Of a stretch of DNA of 7,199 nt, positions 1 through 7,199 are shown in pieces (position 1 is the first letter of the stretch; the number at the start of each line of letters is the position of its first letter). Where the stretch lies: the NCBI GenBank assembly GCA_002779075.1, contig PEXK01000043.1, positions 1 through 7,199 on the forward strand, in the 5' to 3' direction. The position numbers were made by a program, and so were the translations under genes. This DNA is from Candidatus Diapherotrites archaeon CG08_land_8_20_14_0_20_30_16 (GTDB lineage Archaea > Iainarchaeota > Iainarchaeia > Iainarchaeales > 0-14-0-20-30-16). The notes under the pieces were generated by a model. The model saw nothing but the letters and a program-made list of their open reading frames with translations. It was not told the origin of the DNA and searched no databases.

Positions 1-723
1 AAATATTTTAATATATATTTATTAACTGGAGGATTTCCAGAAACAATTAATGATTATATTAAAAATTTGAAAACAGGAGCTGCAAAAATAAATTCAACAT
101 ATTATGAAGATATTATTGAAAAAATATTTGAAAAGATGAATAAGAAAATTTCGATTGATATATTAAAGGTAATAGTTGATTCTATAACAAATACATTAAA
201 ATATAGCACAATAAAAAACAAAACCAAATATTCTGAAAAGACAATAAAATGGTATTTGAATGAAATGTCTGAATTGATGTTATTATTTGAAATTAAAGAA
301 AAGCAATCAAACAAATTAAAAAAATTTTACATAAAAGATCCATTTATTATGCATTCAATAAGAACTTATTATACTAGTACAAATTATTTTGAAGATAGTT
401 TTAATACAATTATGGATGAGCGAGAAAAAGGAATATTTGTTGAAAATTGTGTGGCGGGACACTTGCATAATTTATATAATTGGAATTTAGAATTTTATAG
501 AGATGAGAAACAAAAAGAGGTTGATTTTATTGTTAATAAAACAGCAATAGAAGTGAAATATCGTACAAAAATAGAAATGCCTACTTTAATTAAAGGTGTA
601 GAGGAATATATTTTGTTAACTAGATTTCCAGTTGGGCTTGCAGATTTGCAAATTAATAATAGGCTTGCAATACCTTCATGTGTATTTTTGGCGATGTTGC
701 AAAAACCATTAAATTTTTTATAA
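1..723 (+). CDS. AAA+ ATPase of the COG1373 type, C-terminal portion (DUF4143-like region); the 5' end lies outside the window
   Basis: Frame 1 is open from base 1 (KYFNIYLLTGGFPETINDYIKN...), so the TTG at 67 in the ORF track is not the true start. LLTGGFPE, KFYIKDPFI and the C-terminal EVDFIV...AIEVKY (PD-(D/E)xK-like) pattern are typical of AAA_14/DUF4143 ATPases. Stop is TAA at 721-723. Confidence 0.75.
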   Translation, partial: KYFNIYLLTGGFPETINDYIKNLKTGAAKINSTYYEDIIEKIFEKMNKKISIDILKVIVDSITNTLKYSTIKNKTKYSEKTIKWYLNEMSELMLLFEIKEKQSNKLKKFYIKDPFIMHSIRTYYTSTNYFEDSFNTIMDEREKGIFVENCVAGHLHNLYNWNLEFYRDEKQKEVDFIVNKTAIEVKYRTKIEMPTLIKGVEEYILLTRFPVGLADLQINNRLAIPSCVFLAMLQKPLNFL

Positions 724-741
724 TATTTGTAATTTTTTGAT

Positions 742-760
742 AATGATTCCGTATCATTTT
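742..760. terminator. Small hairpin plus T-run between convergent genes; possible bidirectional terminator
   Basis: AATGAT (742-747), loop tccgt, ATCATT (753-758) form a 6-bp stem, followed by TT and flanked by T/A runs (TTTTTT at 733-738). It lies between the ATPase stop (723) and the HepT stop (775). Confidence 0.3.
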
Positions 761-774
761 AAAATTAAAAAAAA

Positions 775-1101
775 TTACTTTTTTAACAGTTTAACTATCT
801 TATTTTTTAATTCAGGAATATCTTTAGTAACTGTTTGCCAAACTAGTTCATAATCTATACCAAAATAAAAATGTGCAACCCGATCCCTCATCCCTGCAAT
901 ATCTTTCCAAGGAACATCTTTATGCTTGTTTTTAAATTCGACAGGTAGATTTTTTACAGCTTCACCAATAATTTCTAACAACTGCATCATTAATTAATTC
1001 TTCTTTGAGAAAACTAGATAAGTCTAAACCTTTAGTATATTTTTTGATTTTCTCGATTGAATCAAGAATGTGTTGTAAAAAATTTTAGAATCCTTTTTCA
1101 T
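775..1101 (-). pseudogene. hepT: HepT (DUF86) toxin of an MNT/HepT pair; reading frame disrupted by two frame changes
   Basis: The C-terminal ORF 775-990 carries LEIIGEAVKNLP and the RX4HXY motif (GMRDRVAHFYFGIDYELVW). The N-terminal ATG at 1101-1099 gives MKKDSKIF and then hits a stop. The expected N-terminal HepT sequence LQHILDSIEKIKKYTKGLDLSSFLKEELINDAVVRN is present in the -1 frame between about 1078 and 968. The ATG overlaps the upstream MNT stop (ATATGA), as in typical TA operons. Confidence 0.75.
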
Positions 1102-1338
1102 ATGGCCACCAAATCTTGCAAAATCTGTTTCTTAAGTCTTGGATTAATGCTCCTGAGGGAAATCAAATCTACCGGAATGCCTATTTTTTTCTCTATTTTG
1201 TTTACAACTCTACTTAAATCTAAAAGTGAAAAACAATTCAAAGGTTTAAATAGATCCAAAATTAAGACCTATTTGGTTCAAAATCCTTTGGGTAGAGATG
1301 ATGCTTTGCCATTGATTGCTTTGGGTTTTCTGAAAGTA
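1098..1338 (-). pseudogene. mntA: MNT-type nucleotidyltransferase antitoxin remnant with the catalytic core missing
   Basis: Frame ending with TGA at 1100-1098 reads VLILDLFKPLNCFSLLDLSRVVNKIEKKIGIPVDLISLRSINPRLKKQILQDLVAI, a typical MNT C-terminal half. A different frame upstream reads ...STQRILNQIGLNFGSI then a stop, containing the GS of the GSx10DxD motif. The roughly 20 residues that should separate GS from the SLLDL region, including DxD, are absent. No full-length ORF exists. Confidence 0.5.
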
Positions 1339-1360
1339 TAATTAAAAAGTCTACCGAAAT

Positions 1361-1372
1361 CTATTTATATAG
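1361..1372. promoter_or_regulatory. Possible bidirectional TATA box between the MNT/HepT locus and the membrane-protein operon
   Basis: CTATTTATATAG reads TTTATATA on the plus strand, 18-27 nt upstream of the ATGs at 1389 and 1398. It reads TATATAAA on the minus strand, upstream of the MNT remnant. Confidence 0.35.
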
Positions 1373-1388
1373 AAAAGTATTATGTTTT

Positions 1389-1781
1389 ATGATTCCTATG
1401 TATGATTTAGTATTGCTTTCTATTTTTTCTGGATTTTTTTCAGATATGTCATTTATATTGAAAATCTTTCTGCTTGTTGCTGTCTTAGGCTTTTTGAACC
1501 AGCATATTGAAAATAAAACATTGAAAGTAATAGTTGCTATTTTCATGGTTTATATTGTTATTTTCGTTGATTGGGCTACTTTCGGCTGGATGTATTTGAT
1601 TTATGCTGTTTTAGGCTTAGGAATATCAAGTATATTTGTTGATTTCTTCTTTATTACTAATATGAATCCAGAAGAAAGAGGTGGCGGACATCAAGGAATG
1701 ATGCCTGGAATGGGCGGTATGCAAGGAATGGAACCTGAAATGGAACATATACAGTATGAACATCAACCAAGAGGGAGATAA
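1389..1781 (+). CDS. Small membrane protein P1 (130 aa, about 4 TM helices) with a Met/Gly/His-rich C-terminal tail; unknown function
   Basis: Hydrophobic segments: YDLVLLSIFSGFF, FILKIFLLVAVLGFL, LKVIVAIFMVYIVIFV, WMYLIYAVLGLGISSIFVDFFFI. Tail: ERGGGHQGMMPGMGGMQGMEPEMEHIQYEHQPRGR. An in-frame alternative start is at 1398. The stop TAA at 1779-1781 overlaps the next ATG (TAATG). Confidence 0.7.
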   Translation: MIPMYDLVLLSIFSGFFSDMSFILKIFLLVAVLGFLNQHIENKTLKVIVAIFMVYIVIFVDWATFGWMYLIYAVLGLGISSIFVDFFFITNMNPEERGGGHQGMMPGMGGMQGMEPEMEHIQYEHQPRGR

Positions 1782-2158
1782 TGTTTAATTTAAACCAAAG
1801 AGGAATAGGTGTTGTTGCAGTAATGGGTCTTGCATTTCTTTTCTTTTTAGTTCTACCTATAATTCTTTTCAAATTAAATGGAATGAGCAAGGTCCTTTTC
1901 CAGATTATTATGGTATTCACTATAATTGGATATGTAAAACAGATGGGTTTAGATGGCGCATTAATGTGGATTGTTTCGGGAATTTTGGTATATTTCATAG
2001 TATGGAAGTATATTTATTTGTTTTCTAGTTTATATTTATTGATGCTTCTGATGGGTTTTGGCTTTACATCAGCAATTATGTGGGGATCAAACACTTTGAG
2101 AAGCAAAATCGGTGGCTGGTCTGAGAGTTGGAAACAGAGAAAAGCTATGGTGAAGTGA
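1781..2158 (+). CDS. Small membrane protein P2 (125 aa, about 4 TM helices); unknown function
   Basis: ATG at 1781 is preceded by GAGGGAG at -10 to -4. Hydrophobic segments: GIGVVAVMGLAFLFFLVLPIILF, VLFQIIMVFTIIGYV, ALMWIVSGILVYFIVW, YLFSSLYLLMLLMGFGFTSAIMW. The C-terminus is basic. The stop is TGA, immediately followed by TAA. Confidence 0.7.
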   Translation: MFNLNQRGIGVVAVMGLAFLFFLVLPIILFKLNGMSKVLFQIIMVFTIIGYVKQMGLDGALMWIVSGILVYFIVWKYIYLFSSLYLLMLLMGFGFTSAIMWGSNTLRSKIGGWSESWKQRKAMVK

Positions 2159-2163
2159 TAAAT

Positions 2164-2406
2164 ATGATGCCTTTAATGCTTGATATTGTTTTGGGTACAC
2201 CAAAAGGCGATATCTGGCTTGCTCTTTTGCTCTTTCTGGCAGTAGTGACTTTTGCATGGGCTAAAGGGAAATTAGGGGATGCTTATACGGCAATAGCTTT
2301 TGTTTTGATTTTGGGTCTGGTTTTCATAAGCCACACTGAGTTTGTATGGGTTGTAGTGGGTGTATGGTTGCTGAAGGAATATGGCCTGAAGATGTTTAAG
2401 GTGTAA
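2164..2406 (+). CDS. Small membrane protein P3 (80 aa, about 3 TM helices); unknown function
   Basis: I prefer the ATG at 2164 (MMPLMLDIV...) over the TTG at 2128 in the track. GGTGA/GTGAT motifs lie 5-10 nt upstream, and 2128 would overlap P2 by 31 nt. Hydrophobic segments: IWLALLLFLAVVTFAWA, AYTAIAFVLILGLVFI, FVWVVVGVWLL. Confidence 0.65.
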   Translation: MMPLMLDIVLGTPKGDIWLALLLFLAVVTFAWAKGKLGDAYTAIAFVLILGLVFISHTEFVWVVVGVWLLKEYGLKMFKV

Positions 2407-2408
2407 AT

Positions 2409-2732
2409 ATGGATTTGTTTACCTTTGCTATATCCCTTTTGGTTATGCTTATAGCTATGCAGTATGGCTATTTTTGGATAGTTGTTGTTATAGGGGCTAT
2501 TCTTATTTTTATGGGCAAATCAAAGCATATATTTATAATAGTTATTGCTCTAATTATCTTATTGTTTCTTATTAGGGGTACACCCTATGAAGGGTACAAT
2601 GTTTATTGCGTTGCTTTAGGTATAGGAGCATTTTTGTTGATGAATAAGGAGGAAGCTGCAGATACCTATAATCCAGAAGACCAATATGGTGATTTACTGA
2701 AGGGTTTAGGTGGAGGCTCGGGTGGAATCTAA
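2409..2732 (+). CDS. Small membrane protein P4 (107 aa, about 4 TM helices) with an acidic then Gly-rich tail; unknown function
   Basis: ATG at 2409 lies 2 nt after the P3 stop and is preceded by AAGGTG (GGTG at -9 to -6). Hydrophobic segments: LFTFAISLLVMLIAM, YFWIVVVIGAILIFM, HIFIIVIALIILLFLI, VYCVALGIGAFLLM. Tail: NKEEAADTYNPEDQYGDLLKGLGGGSGGI. Confidence 0.7.
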   Translation: MDLFTFAISLLVMLIAMQYGYFWIVVVIGAILIFMGKSKHIFIIVIALIILLFLIRGTPYEGYNVYCVALGIGAFLLMNKEEAADTYNPEDQYGDLLKGLGGGSGGI

Positions 2733-2733
2733 A

Positions 2734-3078
2734 ATGAAATATCTTTTTTTAGTTATAGGGGTAGTTTTGACTTTGGGAGCAATGGTAAACTCAAGCTTAT
2801 TTTATCTAGGATTAGTAGTAATGGGTTTGTCTTTTGTTTTCACAACTACAAGTGAGAAGTCTGTTGCTAAGATTGAAGAACGCAAGTCTTTAATCGATAG
2901 ATTAGACAAGATCAATTTCAATATGCCTGATAATGCTTTATCTAACATTGTTGGTGACGTTATGGCTGTCACTGCAAAAATGAGCAAAGGGGAAAAAGCA
3001 GATTTAAGTGCAAAGAACCTAGTTGCAGGCACAGTAAGTACAATAAACAGTGTAACCGGTGTATTGAAGAATAAATAA
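2734..3078 (+). CDS. Membrane-anchored protein P5 (114 aa): N-terminal 2-TM hairpin plus a soluble helical domain of about 70 aa; unknown function
   Basis: I prefer the ATG at 2734 (MKYLFLVIGVV...) over the GTG at 2710. It lies 1 nt after the P4 stop with GGTGG at -13 to -9. TM segments: YLFLVIGVVLTLGAMV and LFYLGLVVMGLSFVF. The rest is polar: SEKSVAKIEERKSLIDRLDKINF...KGEKADLSAKNLVAGTVSTINSVTGVLKNK. Confidence 0.65.
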   Translation: MKYLFLVIGVVLTLGAMVNSSLFYLGLVVMGLSFVFTTTSEKSVAKIEERKSLIDRLDKINFNMPDNALSNIVGDVMAVTAKMSKGEKADLSAKNLVAGTVSTINSVTGVLKNK

Positions 3079-3160
3079 TCTGTGTGAATGAATCTTAAGT
3101 TTAAAAGCCTTATTCTAATTTTGTTCAAAAAAGCAATATTAAAGCAAATGATTAAATAAA

Positions 3161-3168
3161 TTTAAATA
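3161..3168 (+). promoter_or_regulatory. TATA-box-like element upstream of vapB
   Basis: TTTAAATA is centred about 27 nt upstream of the vapB ATG (3192). This spacing fits an archaeal leaderless or short-leader transcript. Confidence 0.4.
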
Positions 3169-3173
3169 TATAT

Positions 3174-3183
3174 CTGTATACAG
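3174..3183. promoter_or_regulatory. Perfect 10-bp palindrome between the TATA box and the vapB start; candidate VapB(C) operator
   Basis: CTGTATACAG is its own reverse complement. It sits 9 nt upstream of the vapB ATG, immediately downstream of the TATA-like box. Confidence 0.35.
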
Positions 3184-3191
3184 TATATAGT

Positions 3192-3416
3192 ATGAGAACT
3201 ATAATGATTAAAGATGAAGTATACAATATGTTGGCTTCAATTAAAGAAGACAAAAGTTTTTCTGAAACAATAAACTCTTTGATTAAAAAAAATACTGATA
3301 TTAGAAAGGCAAACTTAATAAAATTATATGGTATTATAGATGAAAAAAAAGCTAATGAAATGATGGTTAGTATAAAAGAGGTTAGAAGTAATGCAAGGGC
3401 CAATACTTTTGGATAG
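3192..3416 (+). CDS. vapB: VapB-type antitoxin (archaeal PF02697/UPF0330-like)
   Basis: MRTIMIKDEVYNMLASIKEDKSFSETINSLIKK matches the archaeal antitoxin pattern (I.I.DEVY..L...K...ESFS..I..L). The product is 74 aa. The gene overlaps a downstream PIN gene by 26 nt. Confidence 0.75.
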   Translation: MRTIMIKDEVYNMLASIKEDKSFSETINSLIKKNTDIRKANLIKLYGIIDEKKANEMMVSIKEVRSNARANTFG

Positions 3417-3816
3417 TTCTATAATTATTTCTTTTTTGAAAAAAGCAATTCCCAAAGAATTAATTTTAGATTCTATAGGTTTGTATGTTTCTTCAATCTC
3501 TGTTTTTGAAACTGCTTATGGTGAACTGTTTTTAGAGGCAAAGGGACAAAAATCTTTGATGAAAGAATTATATTCTTTTTTTGACAATGTAAATGTGATT
3601 GCTATAGATTTTATTCAAGCACAAAAGGCCTCTGAATTAAAAGCGGTATTGAAGGTTAAAGGAATTAGTATAAATGATTTTGATTTGTTTATTTTAGCTT
3701 TGGGTATTACTAAAAATGTACCAATATACACTTTGGATTCTGATTTTGAATTAGCAAAAGATGTTTTGGAATTAATTTATAATTATGATAAAATAGTTCT
3801 TGTAAAACAGGAATAA
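3391..3816 (+). CDS. vapC: PIN-domain ribonuclease toxin VapC
   Basis: Four PIN acidic positions are visible: LLDSS (D8), SVFETAYGE, NDFDLFILALG, YTLDSDF. GAGGT lies at -13 to -9 before the ATG at 3391. The product is 141 aa. Confidence 0.85.
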   Translation: MQGPILLDSSIIISFLKKAIPKELILDSIGLYVSSISVFETAYGELFLEAKGQKSLMKELYSFFDNVNVIAIDFIQAQKASELKAVLKVKGISINDFDLFILALGITKNVPIYTLDSDFELAKDVLELIYNYDKIVLVKQE

Positions 3817-3821
3817 CTTTT

Positions 3822-5072
3822 TTAATTAATCTTACTTAATCTAATAACAGCATCAGCTAATTTTTTTGAATCGTGTCTATTTGGATTCTTTTCATTAATT
3901 AGATCTTCTTTTATAAATTTTGTACTGTCTTTTACTGCTGGTTCAACAAAGTATTTCTTTTCTTCCAAACATTTCTTTAATTGCTCTTTACTGGGTTGCT
4001 TTGTGTTAAAAAGCACAAAATCTAAATCTATGAATTTTTCAATCCATTCTAAATAATTTTCTGCTTTGAAACCATGGGTCTCAGGATAATTAGTCATTAC
4101 ATTACATACATAGATCTTTTTTGCTTTGCTCTTTTTGATTTCGTTGCACAATTCAGGCACAAGCAGGTTTGGTAAAACACTTGTAAATAAATCTCCAGGA
4201 CCAATAACAATTGCATCTGCATCTTTAATAGCTTCTTTGGCCTCTGGGTTTAGTTTGGGTTTTGTTGATAGTCCTAATTCTTTTATCCCTAAACCAAATT
4301 TGCCTATATTGTCTTCGCCAATAATCATTTTATCATCTTTTAGTTTTGCAACAAGCTCGCACTTATCAAAAGTTACAGGCAAGACCCGCCCCCTAATTCT
4401 TAGAAGATCAGAGAATTGGTTACAAGCTTCTTTTGTGCCGAGGTCTTGATCCAATCTTGCTAGAATCAAGTTTCCAATAGTATGCCCCTTTAATGATGAT
4501 TTCGTATCGAACCTCAATGTAAAAATTTTCTTTTGCTTGTCATTAAGTGTTGAAAGGCTGATAATTGCATTTCTCAAATCTCCTGGTGGCAAGACACCAA
4601 ATTCTGTTTTGAGTAACTGTGATGAACCACCAGAATCCATTGTGCTGATTATTGCAGATATGTTTGATGTATATTCTTTTAATCCTGTTAAAATAGTATA
4701 CTGGCCAGTTCCTCCGCCAAGGGTAACTATTTTCTTAGCTTTTGAAAGCTTTGTTTCCACATACACATTTTCAAAAAGGCTATCATTACAGCCAGAGAAG
4801 AATTTGTAGATTTTATATGCTGAATAAATTATTGCTAATCCGCCAATAACAAAGATTATGCTTGCTATAATTGTATGAAGGGAGGTATCAAAACTAAACA
4901 ACCGCGATACTCTTGTGCTTAAGAAAGTCATTACCCTTGACAAATAAGGATAAAGCCCCAAGAAAAGTGCAATAAATAATCCTATTATTCCTAAGATAAA
5001 AATTACTAGCCATATTTTCAGGTTTGATGTCAAAAAAACAGCTTTTTTTGCTTTCTCAGATAAAGAAGTCAT
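3822..5072 (-). CDS. YvcK/CofD-family (UPF0052, PF01933-like) protein with an N-terminal two-helix membrane anchor
   Basis: KIVTLGGGTGQYTILTGLKEYTSNISAIISTMDSGGSSQLLKTEFGVLPPGDLRNAIISLS matches the YvcK signature (GGGTG ... DDGGSSG ... PPGDxRN). The N-terminus has IWLVIFILGIIGLFIALFLGLY and TIIASIIFVIGGLAIIYSAY. I prefer the ATG at 5072 (MTSLSEKAKK...), with a minus-strand TTTAAATA about 23 nt upstream. The track start at 5129 is a TTG and remains possible, because an AAATTTAAAG box lies at about 5163-5172. Confidence 0.8.
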   Translation of the reverse strand: MTSLSEKAKKAVFLTSNLKIWLVIFILGIIGLFIALFLGLYPYLSRVMTFLSTRVSRLFSFDTSLHTIIASIIFVIGGLAIIYSAYKIYKFFSGCNDSLFENVYVETKLSKAKKIVTLGGGTGQYTILTGLKEYTSNISAIISTMDSGGSSQLLKTEFGVLPPGDLRNAIISLSTLNDKQKKIFTLRFDTKSSLKGHTIGNLILARLDQDLGTKEACNQFSDLLRIRGRVLPVTFDKCELVAKLKDDKMIIGEDNIGKFGLGIKELGLSTKPKLNPEAKEAIKDADAIVIGPGDLFTSVLPNLLVPELCNEIKKSKAKKIYVCNVMTNYPETHGFKAENYLEWIEKFIDLDFVLFNTKQPSKEQLKKCLEEKKYFVEPAVKDSTKFIKEDLINEKNPNRHDSKKLADAVIRLSKIN

Positions 5073-5091
5073 AAATATAAAAGAAAAAAGA

Positions 5092-5099
5092 TATTTAAA
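5092..5099 (-). promoter_or_regulatory. TATA-box-like element upstream of the ATG at 5072
   Basis: The minus strand reads TTTAAATA, centred about 23 nt upstream of the ATG at 5072. Confidence 0.3.
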
Positions 5100-5253
5100 T
5101 ATAGATAGTATATTTTTATAATTGAACAAATGCTAGGTCATCAACAATAAGATCTAGAAAAGCTTTAAATTTGGCTAGACTGAGAACAGAAGAAATACAA
5201 GAACAAGCAAGAAAAAAAGCAAACCCAAAGTTAAGATGATCTATTGGCCAAAA

Positions 5254-5297
5254 ATTACAACACTATCATAAAAAAAATAAAAGGGATTTTTATGACT
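5254..5297 (+). repeat. Copy A of an imperfect direct repeat of the DRG promoter/start region
   Basis: Copy A is ATTACAACACTATCATAAA, 19 nt, then ATGACT (ATG at 5292). Copy B is ATTATACAACAGTATCATAAA, 17 nt, then ATGACT (ATG at 5366). Copy A opens only a 4-codon ORF (MTQL, then a stop). Confidence 0.55.
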
Positions 5298-5327
5298 CAG
5301 TTGTAAATTTCTTCAAAAAAATCAGAA

Positions 5328-5371
5328 ATTATACAACAGTATCATAAATAATTGATGTGATATTTATGACT
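5328..5371 (+). repeat. Copy B of the direct repeat, containing the real DRG start
   Basis: See copy A. The two copies are offset by 74 nt (ATG to ATG). GTGAT at -9 to -5 of the ATG at 5366 is a partial Shine-Dalgarno motif. Confidence 0.55.
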
Positions 5372-6481
5372 ACTAATTTTGATTATGAATATGGAAAAGC
5401 ATTAGAACAATATGAAAATGCGAAAACTATAGACGAAAAAATCAAGGCATTAGAATTGATGCAAAGTACAGCACCAAGCCACAAAGGTGCTGAAAATTTG
5501 AGATCTGATATTGTTGGAAAGTTAGCTAAACTCAGACAGAAATTAGAGAAATCCAAAGCAGTTAAAGGTGGTTCAAAAGGATTAAGGTTTGCAAGAGATG
5601 ATTCTGCAACAGTTGTTTTGTTAGGTCTTCCAAATAGCGGTAAGAGCACTTTGCTTTCAAAAATAACAAATGCAAACCCTAAAATTAGTGATTATGCATT
5701 CACTACTAAAGTTCCTGAAATAGGAATAATGGAATATCAAGGAACAAAAATACAAATTGTTGAATTACCTGCTTTAGTTGAAGGTGCAAATAAAGGGCGG
5801 GCTCGCGGAAAAGAAATTTTAAGCCTTGCCAGAAATGGAGATTTGATAGTTCTGGTTTTGCTGGGGTCAAAAGAGGCAACAGAATACAGTTTAGATGTTT
5901 TGATTTCTGAACTCCAACTAAGTAATGTTGTAATTAATAAAAAAAAGCCGCAAATATCTATAAATAAAACAGGTTCTCAGGGAATCGAAATATTAGGTGA
6001 ACGAAATATTTTAGATGCTCCACAGAAACTGTATAATATACTAAAACAGAGATACTCTCACATAATTTTGCGAATTGATGAAAAAGCAAAAACAGATGAT
6101 ATTTTAGAAGCAATGGACTCAACAAAAAGTTATAAAAAAGTAATTGGTATCTGGTTAGATGGAAATGAAGACTGCACAATAAAAGGCATACCCATTTATA
6201 GTATGAAAATCATCCCCGAAATTAAAAAAACAATTTACAACAATTTAGATTTGATAATTGTTTATACAAGAAAACCTAGTGAGAAAGATAATGATAATGT
6301 TCCTGTTGCATTGAGGCAAAATAGCACAGTAAAAGATCTTTGCAACCTTCTTCATAAAGAATTTATTTTGAAGTTTAAGTTTGCAAGAGTTTGGGGTTCT
6401 GCAAAATATCCTGGCCAGCAGGTTTCTTTGAATTATGTTTTAAGTGCAAACGATATTGTTGAATTATATGTAAAAAACTAG
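5366..6481 (+). CDS. DRG-family (Obg/TRAFAC class) GTPase with a C-terminal TGS domain
   Basis: Three regions match DRG. The N-terminal helix is SHKGAENLRSDIVGKLAKLRQKL. G1 is GLPNSGKST (5624-5650) and G2 is YAFTT. The TGS region is IIVYTRKPSEKDNDNVPVALRQNSTVKDLCNLLHKEFILKFKFARVWGSAKYPGQQV, which parallels eukaryotic DRG1 (IYTKPKG...PVVL...TVEDFC..IHK...EFKYALVWG). I prefer the ATG at 5366 over the GTG at 5357. Confidence 0.85.
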   Translation: MTTNFDYEYGKALEQYENAKTIDEKIKALELMQSTAPSHKGAENLRSDIVGKLAKLRQKLEKSKAVKGGSKGLRFARDDSATVVLLGLPNSGKSTLLSKITNANPKISDYAFTTKVPEIGIMEYQGTKIQIVELPALVEGANKGRARGKEILSLARNGDLIVLVLLGSKEATEYSLDVLISELQLSNVVINKKKPQISINKTGSQGIEILGERNILDAPQKLYNILKQRYSHIILRIDEKAKTDDILEAMDSTKSYKKVIGIWLDGNEDCTIKGIPIYSMKIIPEIKKTIYNNLDLIIVYTRKPSEKDNDNVPVALRQNSTVKDLCNLLHKEFILKFKFARVWGSAKYPGQQVSLNYVLSANDIVELYVKN

Positions 6482-6484
6482 TTA

Positions 6485-6489
6485 TTTTT
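6485..6489 (+). terminator. Oligo-T run immediately after the DRG stop
   Basis: TTTTT begins 4 nt after the TAG (6479-6481). Archaeal termination commonly uses oligo-T tracts. Confidence 0.3.
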
Positions 6490-6509
6490 CTTAGAGTCAA
6501 TTCTAAAGA

Positions 6510-6531
6510 AACCTATATAAATCCATAGGTT
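6510..6531. promoter_or_regulatory. 7-bp stem hairpin that embeds a TATATAAA box upstream of the surface-protein gene
   Basis: AACCTAT (6510-6516), loop ATAAATCC, ATAGGTT (6525-6531). TATATAAA spans 6514-6521, about 80 nt upstream of the TTG start at 6600. Confidence 0.35.
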
Positions 6532-6599
6532 ATATTTAATTATCAAATTGATGGTTAGACATTGGTTTGTTACAATTATTGAACTAAGGTGAGGATTGC

Positions 6600-7199
6600 T
6601 TGGATTTTAATAGAGTTTTTTTGGTTTGTTTCTTTTTATTTGTGATTGCTGGTTTTTCATATGCTTTTACTGGTTGTCAGACCTTTACTGATGAAAATCT
6701 AGGTCAAACCCTTACTTTAGAAGCAGATATTAATTGATGGGTAGGTGATTGTTTTAGTTTAAGTACAACAGATGATTCCAATTATTTGGAAATAGATTGT
6801 GATAACTATAGTATTGATTCAAATGGGGATAGTTATAGGCTTTTTGATATAAATCAAGATATTAATAAGATTACATTTCGTAATTGTGATATTAATATAG
6901 TTAATTCCTTTGCCCAAGATTCCTTTGCCCAAGATTATTCTACTTTTTGTAAGTTTAGTTCTGAGGATTTAAATATATTGGAGATTTTGGATTCAAACAT
7001 ATATTTGAATAATGAGGTCTTTTTGAATTTTGGTTTTTTTGATACTAATTCTTTGGATTTAAATTTTAATGGTTCTTATTTTGAAGTTAGATAAATACCG
7101 TCATACTGGATTTTGTTGTCTTTGGGTTTAAATTATTTAAAGATATATGATTTAAATGTATCTTATGATGTTGATGATCCTGCAAAACCAATGATTGCT
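6600..7199 (+). pseudogene. Secreted, probably lipid-anchored, repeat-rich surface protein gene interrupted by in-frame TGA (6735-6737) and TAA (7092-7094); continues beyond the window
   Basis: A strong RBS, AAGGTGAGG (6586-6594), lies 5 nt before the TTG at 6600. The signal peptide is MDFNRVFLVCFFLFVIAGFSYAFTGC, with a lipobox-like FTGC. The same frame continues after the TGA (WVGDCFSLSTTDDSNYLEIDCDNYSIDSNGD...; track ORF 6786-7094). It is open again after the TAA to base 7199 (IPSYWILLSLGLNYLKIYDLNVSYDVDDPAKPMIA). Confidence 0.5.
6906..6935 (+). repeat. Perfect 15-bp tandem duplication (2 copies) inside the surface-protein ORF
   Basis: TCCTTTGCCCAAGAT occurs at 6906-6920 and again at 6921-6935. 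It is in frame and gives SFAQD-SFAQD. Confidence 0.9.

Follow-up and report, generated by a model that had tools for sequence, protein, structure and literature searches.

A conserved cassette of five small membrane proteins and its association with a giant surface-protein gene in Iainarchaeota

What do five small, closely packed membrane-protein genes accomplish in an archaeon when none of their products resembles a protein of known family? This question is raised by contig PEXK01000043.1 of Candidatus Diapherotrites archaeon CG08_land_8_20_14_0_20_30_16 (assembly GCA_002779075.1), of which positions 1 to 7,199, here called the window, were analysed. An earlier inspection of the letters and open reading frames (ORFs), referred to below as the sequence-only reading, had picked out five consecutive ORFs at 1389–3078, here named P1 to P5, and had taken their products for a membrane complex without recognisable family. 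We find that the five ORFs are conserved protein-coding genes of previously undescribed families and that, as judged by profile comparison, three of them are paralogues. In related loci the cassette follows the gene for a giant surface protein, with which the five proteins may work as a membrane platform.

Five conserved genes of Iainarchaeota

To collect homologues, the five proteins were concatenated and used as a phmmer query against 1.84 billion representative proteins in an exhaustive search (E ≤ 1e-3). The scan yielded 114 matches with a best E-value of 3e-39, and each separate small protein matched exactly one of the five; the representative clusters numbered 71 for P1, 17 for P2, 3 for P3, 14 for P4 and 9 for P5. 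A search with a P1-family profile added 197 further matches at 90% clustering, none of which has a Pfam domain. Those that carry a name are all 'hypothetical', their sources being Ca. Diapherotrites, Ca. Iainarchaeum, 'archaeon' and, once, a Micrarchaeota label. Nine orthologue pairs covering all five genes gave dN/dS ratios of 0.03–0.52, with dS mostly saturated, and near-identical strain contigs (at least 99.7% identical to the window) give no dN/dS signal. P2 is present on 15 contigs from ENA, JGI and Logan samples, ten of which were aligned to the window at 99.7–100% identity, and independent gene callers also predict these five genes on the P2-carrying contigs. The cassette is thus almost certainly a real, conserved membrane-protein operon. 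That is, the homologues of all five proteins, the purifying selection and the enrichment of Shine-Dalgarno (SD) motifs described below bear out the claim of the sequence-only reading that these are co-translated genes rather than AT-rich noise. As far as source names show, the distribution is restricted to Iainarchaeota, listed at NCBI as Candidatus Diapherotrites. The earlier hint at DPANN archaea was right in so far as the contig belongs to a metagenome-assembled genome (MAG) of Candidatus Diapherotrites, but by the source names the families are specific to Iainarchaeota and not DPANN-wide.

All five genes lie on the plus strand, P1 at 1389–1781 (130 amino acids, aa), P2 at 1781–2158 (125 aa), P3 at 2164–2406 (80 aa), P4 at 2409–2732 (107 aa) and P5 at 2734–3078 (114 aa). 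P1 and P2 overlap by 1 nucleotide (nt; TAATG), and the gaps from P2 to P3, P3 to P4 and P4 to P5 measure 5, 2 and 1 nt. Coordinates and tight spacing had been given correctly before, except that P3 has 80 and not 81 residues. The window is AT-rich (21–38% GC), and SD-like motifs on the plus strand can be read from its sequence 5' of every internal start, namely GAGGGAG at 1771–1777 (3 nt 5' of the P2 ATG), GGTGA at 2149–2153 (10 nt 5' of the P3 start), AAGGTG at 2398–2403 (5 nt 5' of the P4 start) and GGTGG at 2721–2725 (8 nt 5' of the P5 start). All four motifs named by the sequence-only reading are therefore present; its spacing of 5–10 nt fails for the P2 motif. In related loci, SD-like 5-mers occur at 37% of P2, 22% of P3 and 47% of P4 starts as compared to 4.5% of random positions. 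SD-like words stand 5' of P2 in 32 of 49 cases (background 26%), and an SD-like 4-mer was found at 30 of 34 P4 starts.

Longer alternative starts exist for P3 (TTG at 2128) and P5 (GTG at 2710), and in both cases homologue alignments favour the ATG. The NCBI annotation starts P1 three residues later (127 aa), and the N-terminal 'MIxM' that is kept in close homologues favours 1389. The corresponding records, PIU22143–PIU22147 with locus tags COT14_02670–02690, are those of a Candidatus Diapherotrites MAG, and each reads 'hypothetical protein'. On the plus strand, 18 nt 5' of the P1 ATG, a TATA-box-like sequence, TTTATATA, can be read at 1364–1371. Archaeal TATA boxes usually precede the transcription start by about 25 nt, and on this basis TTTATATA is probably the cassette's own promoter, which would produce a leaderless or very short-leader mRNA. 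A scan of the window for bacterial sigma-70 sites returned 10 sites as compared to 11.9 expected and is uninformative.

Anatomy and kinship of the five proteins

Hydropathy analysis assigns two to four transmembrane (TM) segments to each of P1 to P5, which together with an AlphaFold2 model of P1 supports the earlier description of small polytopic membrane proteins. Residue conservation as well as counts of lysine plus arginine per loop were taken over 35–121 sequences per family. By these counts P1 has its N-terminus outside, three TM helices and its C-terminus inside; P3 and P4 likewise have three TM helices and the same orientation; in P2 there are four, with both termini inside. P5, also N-in and C-in, begins with a TM hairpin, to which a helical, Lys-rich domain of ~75 aa is attached. 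All five C-terminal tails or domains are hence predicted to be cytoplasmic, leaving only short acidic N-termini and loops outside. The polar parts listed by the sequence-only reading were all seen: the Gly/Met/His tail of P1, the acidic-then-Gly-rich tail of P4 and the helical domain of P5.

The model of P1, built from 67 sequences, contains helices at residues 4–39, 43–59 and 62–90, with a predicted local distance difference test (pLDDT) score of 85–98 by block, above 90 in the core and 82 overall, and a tail that is disordered from about residue 95. Conserved residues in 121 sequences are D19 (93%), K25 (90%), G78 (99%) and D85 (100%, within VDFFF). In P2, V52, L69, Y71, K76 and G102 are conserved, and in P3 W32 and K34 (both 100%), G38 in a WAKGxLG loop, and W62. 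P4 conserves W23, G99 and the tail motif Y.PEDQYGDLLKGLGG; its cytoplasmic tail, first acidic and then Gly-rich, carries YNPEDQYGDLLKGLGG. P5 conserves P65 and K112, its domain ending in a conserved ...(V/I/L)(F/L)K. The AlphaFold2 model of P5 places helices at 2–15, 20–38, 53–58, 66–84 and 93–113, and is of low confidence (pLDDT 63) and too poor for fold inference.

A relationship that the sequence-only reading had overlooked connects P1, P2 and P3. Alignment of the P1 and P2 profiles with hhalign gave a probability of 98% and an E-value of 1.8e-13 with the first alignments, and 98.3% and 1.6e-14 with larger ones; TM1–3 of P1 align with TM2–4 of P2. With the larger alignments, P1 also matches P3 (95.6%, E 1.1e-8, 77 columns), and the three families merge into a single BLAST cluster. 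By these comparisons P1, P2 and P3 are paralogues with a common core of three TM helices, and P3 is the smallest of them. They have in common a motif in the cytoplasmic loop after the first core helix, [FW][VA][KR]x[HYN]LGx[GA] with the core [KR]xxLGxG, the loop consensus being SFVKNHLGKGP in P1, TTVRGYLGSGP in P2 and SWAKGNLGSAK in P3. Profile comparison detected no relation of P4 or P5 to P1–P3, and an hhalign match between P4 and P5 (79%, 33 TM columns) was treated as possibly compositional.

The disordered, Gly/Met/His-rich tail of the window's P1 contains a tandem duplication of 30 nt, which a repeat search placed at 1683–1742 on the plus strand (73% identity, encoding GGGHQGMMPGM / GGMQGMEPEM) and which suggests that this low-complexity tail grows by repeat expansion. 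Among relatives, P1 tails vary widely in length and composition; in the wider clade they carry an SP[VI]SSG.D...RQ motif plus a basic end.

Searches of P1–P5 against Pfam, NCBIfam, PHROGs (best E 0.3) and PADLOC returned no significant match, nor did PDB searches by single sequence and by family profile. Foldseek likewise found no significant match in PDB (best E 4 for the P1 model and 5.5 for the P5 model) and reached a best E of 1.9 when the P1 model was compared to viral structure models (BFVD). The phage DNA records contain no match to the cassette, the 2.9 million viral contigs of IMG/VR no relative of it, and in the literature we found no paper that describes it. The libraries searched thus hold no confident profile match to a characterised complex, in keeping with the sequence-only reading, which had recognised no family. 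A remote relation to a known fold is possible.

Several candidates were nevertheless followed up. Mrp/Mnh and Mbh modules resemble the cassette in that they, too, bring together several small polytopic proteins in a translationally coupled operon; however, there is no sequence match, since no such family (MnhB/C/E/F/G, Mbh or Eha) appeared at E ≤ 1 in Pfam or NCBIfam searches with P1–P5, 67 P1 members and 21 P2 members. A large antiporter subunit of MnhA/D type is also missing among the neighbours in the window and 57 related loci, so that the earlier rejection of these modules stands. The same applies to class III (pilin) signal peptides. The FlaFind-type pattern [KRDE][GA][ALIFQMVED][ILMVTAS]x3 occurs in 2 of 121 P1, 3 of 61 P2, 0 of 43 P3, 1 of 44 P4 and 1 of 35 P5 sequences, that is in at most 5% of any family's members, and all these proteins are polytopic or form a hairpin. 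The conserved N-terminus of P2, MNxKG, is pilin-like in appearance; it fails the motif test, and P2 has four TM helices.

Among Pfam families, only DUF4118 (PF13493), which is the multi-helix TM domain found in KdpD-type sensor kinases, matched P1 members repeatedly (6 of 67 at E ≤ 1, best E 8.5e-6), and the motifs at the cytoplasmic TM end are alike, VDFFFV in P1 and SFDLFFIAP in E. coli KdpD. However, P1 of the window scores only 10.3 bits (E 0.61) as compared to the gathering score of 28.4 bits, hhalign of the P1 profile to residues 386–510 of E. coli KdpD gives 1.0% over 13 residues around the D-[FL]-F-F motif, and hmmsearch scores are negative. Moreover, P2 members do not match (1 of 21 at E 0.88), and P1 is a stand-alone protein rather than a kinase domain. 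The Ced DNA import system of Crenarchaeota, with the CedA1 pilin and CedA2, is another archaeal cluster of very small hydrophobic helical proteins, and CedA1 (PDB 8dfu) is the top Foldseek match of the P1 model. This match is not significant (E 4, probability 0.14, TM-score 0.30/0.42). Ced loci generally include the polytopic CedA and the VirB4-like ATPase CedB, whereas no ATPase is conserved near the cassette, and the lead was dropped.

The cassette and its genomic neighbourhood

Synteny was assessed in 57 related loci, comprising five from genomes (one per GTDB species, close P1 alignment), 49 from metagenomes (a distant P1 subgroup) and three with distant P1 proteins. All five genome loci show P1-P2-P3-P4-P5 in the same order and on the same strand (hidden Markov model (HMM) E-values 1e-22 to 1e-45). 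Across the 57 loci P1 was detected in 57, P2 in 53, P3 in 44 and P4 in 37, the last always after P3. The order is identical in every locus long enough, and most absences are contig ends. The conserved synteny at which the sequence-only reading had aimed is therefore found in all five genome loci and upheld across the 49 metagenome loci; homologues exist and co-occur with gene order kept. In the related loci the median gaps are 8 nt between P1 and P2, 47 nt between P2 and P3 and 12.5 nt between P3 and P4. The P5 HMM detects only the close clade. Most long-enough loci have a P5-like gene 3' of P4, coding for a TM hairpin and a Lys-rich polar region that ends in ...SKNF..LKK(I/L)FK, and the distant and close P5 sets align over their full length (hhalign 75%, E 2.5e-5). 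In the two most divergent loci, L064 and L066, giant gene, P1 and P2 are followed by an unrelated Cys-containing TM protein of 71–77 aa (L064:3678–3890; L066:8816–9046), and P3, P4 and P5 were not detected in them.

The giant gene just mentioned had gone unnoticed in the sequence-only reading, and the conserved unit is larger than five genes. An ORF of this family lies upstream of P1 on the plus strand in 45 loci; among the 27 loci with at least 2 kilobases (kb) of upstream sequence, 26 have it directly 5' of P1 and in the same orientation. Complete copies encode 2,158–2,552 aa, and 5'-truncated ORFs reach 2,618 aa. Where nothing is inserted, 4–201 nt separate the giant gene from P1. The gap is only 4–15 nt in L019, L023, L025, L027 and L037, too short to hold a promoter, and therefore the giant gene and the cassette must be co-transcribed in those loci. 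In the giant protein, ~20–60 cytoplasmic residues precede a single TM helix near the N-terminus. Its copies have in common a C-terminal domain of ~220 aa with the pattern ...YW.GA..C.DF.G...PD...YG...FFTP...L.G..GM..N...SL.D.F.LV..G.VCV...G...F.WNP... and are rich in Ig-like/transthyretin-like domains, giving weak matches to CarboxypepD_reg, SpaA, Big_1, MG4 and SspB-adhesin. They are acidic (isoelectric point 4.05–5.12), with 20–28 Cys in full-length copies, and a PDB sequence search found no relative.

In the window's own species the giant gene is found on the longer contigs L002 and L003; it lies outside the window because an AAA_14/DUF4143 gene and HepT/MntA remnants have been inserted between it and P1. 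Its C-terminal part is only 90% identical between samples (L002:1–2175 as compared to L003:2–1609), whereas the rest of the locus is 99.7–100% identical. A divergence of 10% is typical of an exposed surface protein and may reflect diversifying selection or recombination. Downstream of the cassette, the window's clade has CofD-like, DRG and RpiA-like genes, and other clades have genes for proteins of ~165 aa, ~500 aa and ~170 aa, followed by PolB. The adjacency of giant gene and cassette survives these wholly different downstream neighbourhoods; the cassette was ancestrally joined to the giant surface-protein gene.

The block of the other clades is seen at L016:12607–16426, L017:8824–11577, L055:10833–16345 and L061:10313–15612, with the ~165-aa gene on the minus, the ~500-aa gene on the plus and the ~170-aa gene on the minus strand, ahead of the family-B DNA polymerase. 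Pfam has no match for the three proteins. The ~170-aa protein is a coiled coil with a KIKYLVRNEKILGRNL motif and is also encoded near the cassette in L012 and L013. In some genomes further large secreted proteins are encoded within or beside the cassette. A 1,405-aa signal-peptide protein lies between P2 and P3 (L025:8666–12880), and giant gene and P1 are separated by the gene of a 425-aa beta-helix protein whose signal peptide is of class III (pilin-type; L034:6632–7906). In L016 (10224–12590), P5 is followed by a 788-aa protein that matches Peptidase_M64 weakly.

Insertions at the junction of giant gene and P1 were found in the window and L001–L006, L011, L017, L018, L030, L051, L052 and L058. 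They comprise AAA_14-DUF4143, HepT/MntA, HicB, MazE and PIN-like ORFs, those in L030, L051, L052 and L058 being short ORFs without family assignment; the AAA_14/DUF4143 gene is found only in the window's subclade. Toxin-antitoxin genes have thus entered this junction several times independently, splitting the ancestral operon.

Within the window, the C-terminal part of the AAA_14/DUF4143 ATPase gene occupies 67–723 and is followed on the minus strand by a decayed HepT/MntA pair of the type VII toxin-antitoxin class (775–1341). The HepT ORF (775–990) spans only positions 33–119 of the HepT profile, its N-terminal part sitting in another frame, and MntA is a 53-aa C-terminal remnant (1098–1259); gene callers place a 79-aa ORF on the opposite strand of this region instead. 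Between P5 and the CofD-like gene, 3192–3816 holds a VapB/VapC (PIN) pair, which L011 and L012 lack at the matching position and which is therefore a recent insertion. The CofD/YvcK-family protein (3822–5129, minus strand) has ~130 N-terminal residues of TM helices before its CofD domain, and this membrane-anchored form also adjoins the cassette in L011 and L012. A DRG-type GTPase is encoded at 5357–6481. At the contig end, 6600–7094 holds two short TTG-start ORFs without family matches, the first opening with a signal-peptide-like segment that ends in FTGC and the second containing the short repeat SFAQDSFAQD; they may be pieces of a secreted-protein gene that runs off the contig. The window gave no match in Rfam or tRNA scans, and no flanking repeats were found around the cassette.

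A proposed platform for the giant protein and its alternatives

How, then, might the five proteins act? On balance, we consider it probable that the cassette is functionally tied to the giant protein. The best explanation, to which we give an even chance, is that the five proteins constitute a hetero-oligomeric membrane platform that works with the giant surface protein as its anchor or assembly base. The paralogous subunits, the fixed gene order and the coupling point to a complex among P1–P5, and its cooperation with the giant protein is inferred from the genomic context. In such a platform P1, P2 and P3 would form a pseudo-symmetric core, which P4 and P5 would join. The platform would hold or organise the N-terminal membrane anchor of the giant protein, and the disordered tails of P1 and P4 together with the P5 domain would couple the giant protein, S-layer-like or adhesin-like, to the cytoplasm. 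In the window genome AAA_14/DUF4143, the HepT/MntA remnants and VapBC have been inserted around the cassette, which therefore would be served by its own TATA-type promoter. The narrower claim, namely that the cassette is a permanent structural anchor rather than a factor in biogenesis, falls short of even odds. Bolder still, and only tentatively put forward, is the proposal that giant protein and P1–P5 make up a previously unknown, phylum-specific envelope machine. Its base, a hetero-oligomer of the three paralogues and two accessory subunits, would anchor an S-layer or host-contact adhesin and, by way of disordered Gly/Met-rich tails and a basic helical domain, link it to the cytoplasm.

The SlaA/SlaB pair, which forms the S-layer of Sulfolobales, offers a parallel that is meant as an analogy only. 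There, too, a very large acidic surface protein is encoded beside a dedicated membrane protein and co-transcribed with it, and the surface layer is tied to the cytoplasmic membrane, the role that the platform would have here. However, SlaB is one single-pass protein with extracellular bulk and a coiled-coil stalk, whereas the cassette specifies five polytopic proteins of 80–130 aa with their bulk in membrane and cytoplasm. Unlike in the SlaA/SlaB pair, the giant protein carries its own N-terminal TM helix, and Pfam and PDB searches detected no sequence relation.

Several observations weigh against the platform. As indicated by the lysine plus arginine counts, the non-membrane mass of the small proteins is mostly cytoplasmic, which leaves little to reach the main, extracellular part of the giant protein; any contact would have to occur within the membrane or at the giant protein's cytoplasmic N-terminus of ~40–60 aa. 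The giant protein, having a TM anchor of its own, has no obvious need of another. Locus L032 lacks the giant gene although 2.4 kb of upstream sequence are available. The repeated junction insertions and the window cassette's own promoter imply that co-transcription is not obligatory. Finally, this lineage keeps long-range synteny in general, which weakens the argument from adjacency.

The last two points also favour an autonomous channel or transporter of small subunits, in which P1, P2 and P3 would form a path lined by D85 and by D19/K25, P4 and P5 would be regulatory, and the adjacency of the giant gene would be inherited synteny. The cassette can have its own promoter and stands apart from the giant gene in several genomes, the general synteny of the lineage is strong, and transporters are commonly built as heteromers of small, paralogous polytopic subunits. 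The boundary charges of P1 are conserved as such a path would require (D85 in 100%, D19 in 93% and K25 in 90% of sequences), and the Met/His/Gly tail of the window's P1 superficially resembles a metal-binding tail. Nevertheless, the family does not conserve the Met/His-rich tail, the conserved charges are placed at the ends of helices and not in mid-membrane, and no transporter family showed similarity in Pfam, NCBIfam, or PDB by sequence or fold. Moreover, the giant gene stays adjacent across rearranged neighbourhoods, at gaps of 4–15 nt in several loci. We therefore judge a channel unlikely.

Of low probability, too, is a dedicated biogenesis factor, that is an insertase, holdase or export-assist complex for the signal anchor and the ~2,400 residues of the giant protein. 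The giant-gene context speaks for such a factor in the same way as for the platform, and other large secreted proteins are encoded in or beside the cassette (L025, L034, L016). Within TM1 of P1, the conserved K25 is reminiscent of the charged groove residue of Oxa1/YidC insertases. The TM1–TM2 loop of P1, however, has only ~10 residues and contrasts with the cytoplasmic hairpin generally known from the Oxa1 family. Searches of Pfam, NCBIfam, PDB and Foldseek gave no SecY-, SecA-, YidC- or Oxa1-like signal, and the neighbourhood conserves no ATPase. The accessory Sec system of Gram-positive bacteria (SecA2/SecY2 with Asp1–5), an analogy only, likewise clusters the gene of a giant serine-rich adhesin with those of small dedicated membrane proteins, Asp4 and Asp5 being such proteins. 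However, accessory Sec loci hold the SecA2 ATPase, SecY2 and glycosyltransferases, none of which is present or conserved here, and P1–P5 are without Sec-like signal.

That the cassette was carried in by a mobile element or provirus or belongs to a defence island, as its toxin-antitoxin (HepT/MntA, VapBC) and DUF4143 ATPase flanks and the only PADLOC match (P4 to PDC-M50A, E 8e-4 over 33 TM residues) might suggest, is effectively refuted, since relatives lack the flanking toxin-antitoxin genes or have others there, whereas the cassette keeps its chromosomal place among housekeeping genes, between the same neighbours (giant gene, CofD-like, DRG, RpiA-like, PolB), and neither flanking repeats nor viral-contig, PHROGs or phage-record matches were found.

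For contact with hosts and environment, DPANN archaea rely on the cell surface, and full-text literature searches returned nothing on the envelope of Iainarchaeota. The five membrane-protein families of the locus are new and have clear signature residues. The locus also exemplifies how toxin-antitoxin genes repeatedly enter one intergenic spot and split an ancestral operon. For no part of the six-gene module, that is the giant protein and five small ones with three paralogues among them, did we find a family description, a relative of known structure or any mention in print. To judge from its genomic context, the module is a candidate for the envelope or attachment machinery of an entire uncultivated phylum. 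If this holds true, the envelope of these archaea would have an architecture unlike the described modes of S-layer anchoring, be it by an own C-terminal TM segment, a lipid anchor or a SlaB-type stalk, and its link to the cytoplasm could serve in signalling or in positioning or remodelling the cell surface.

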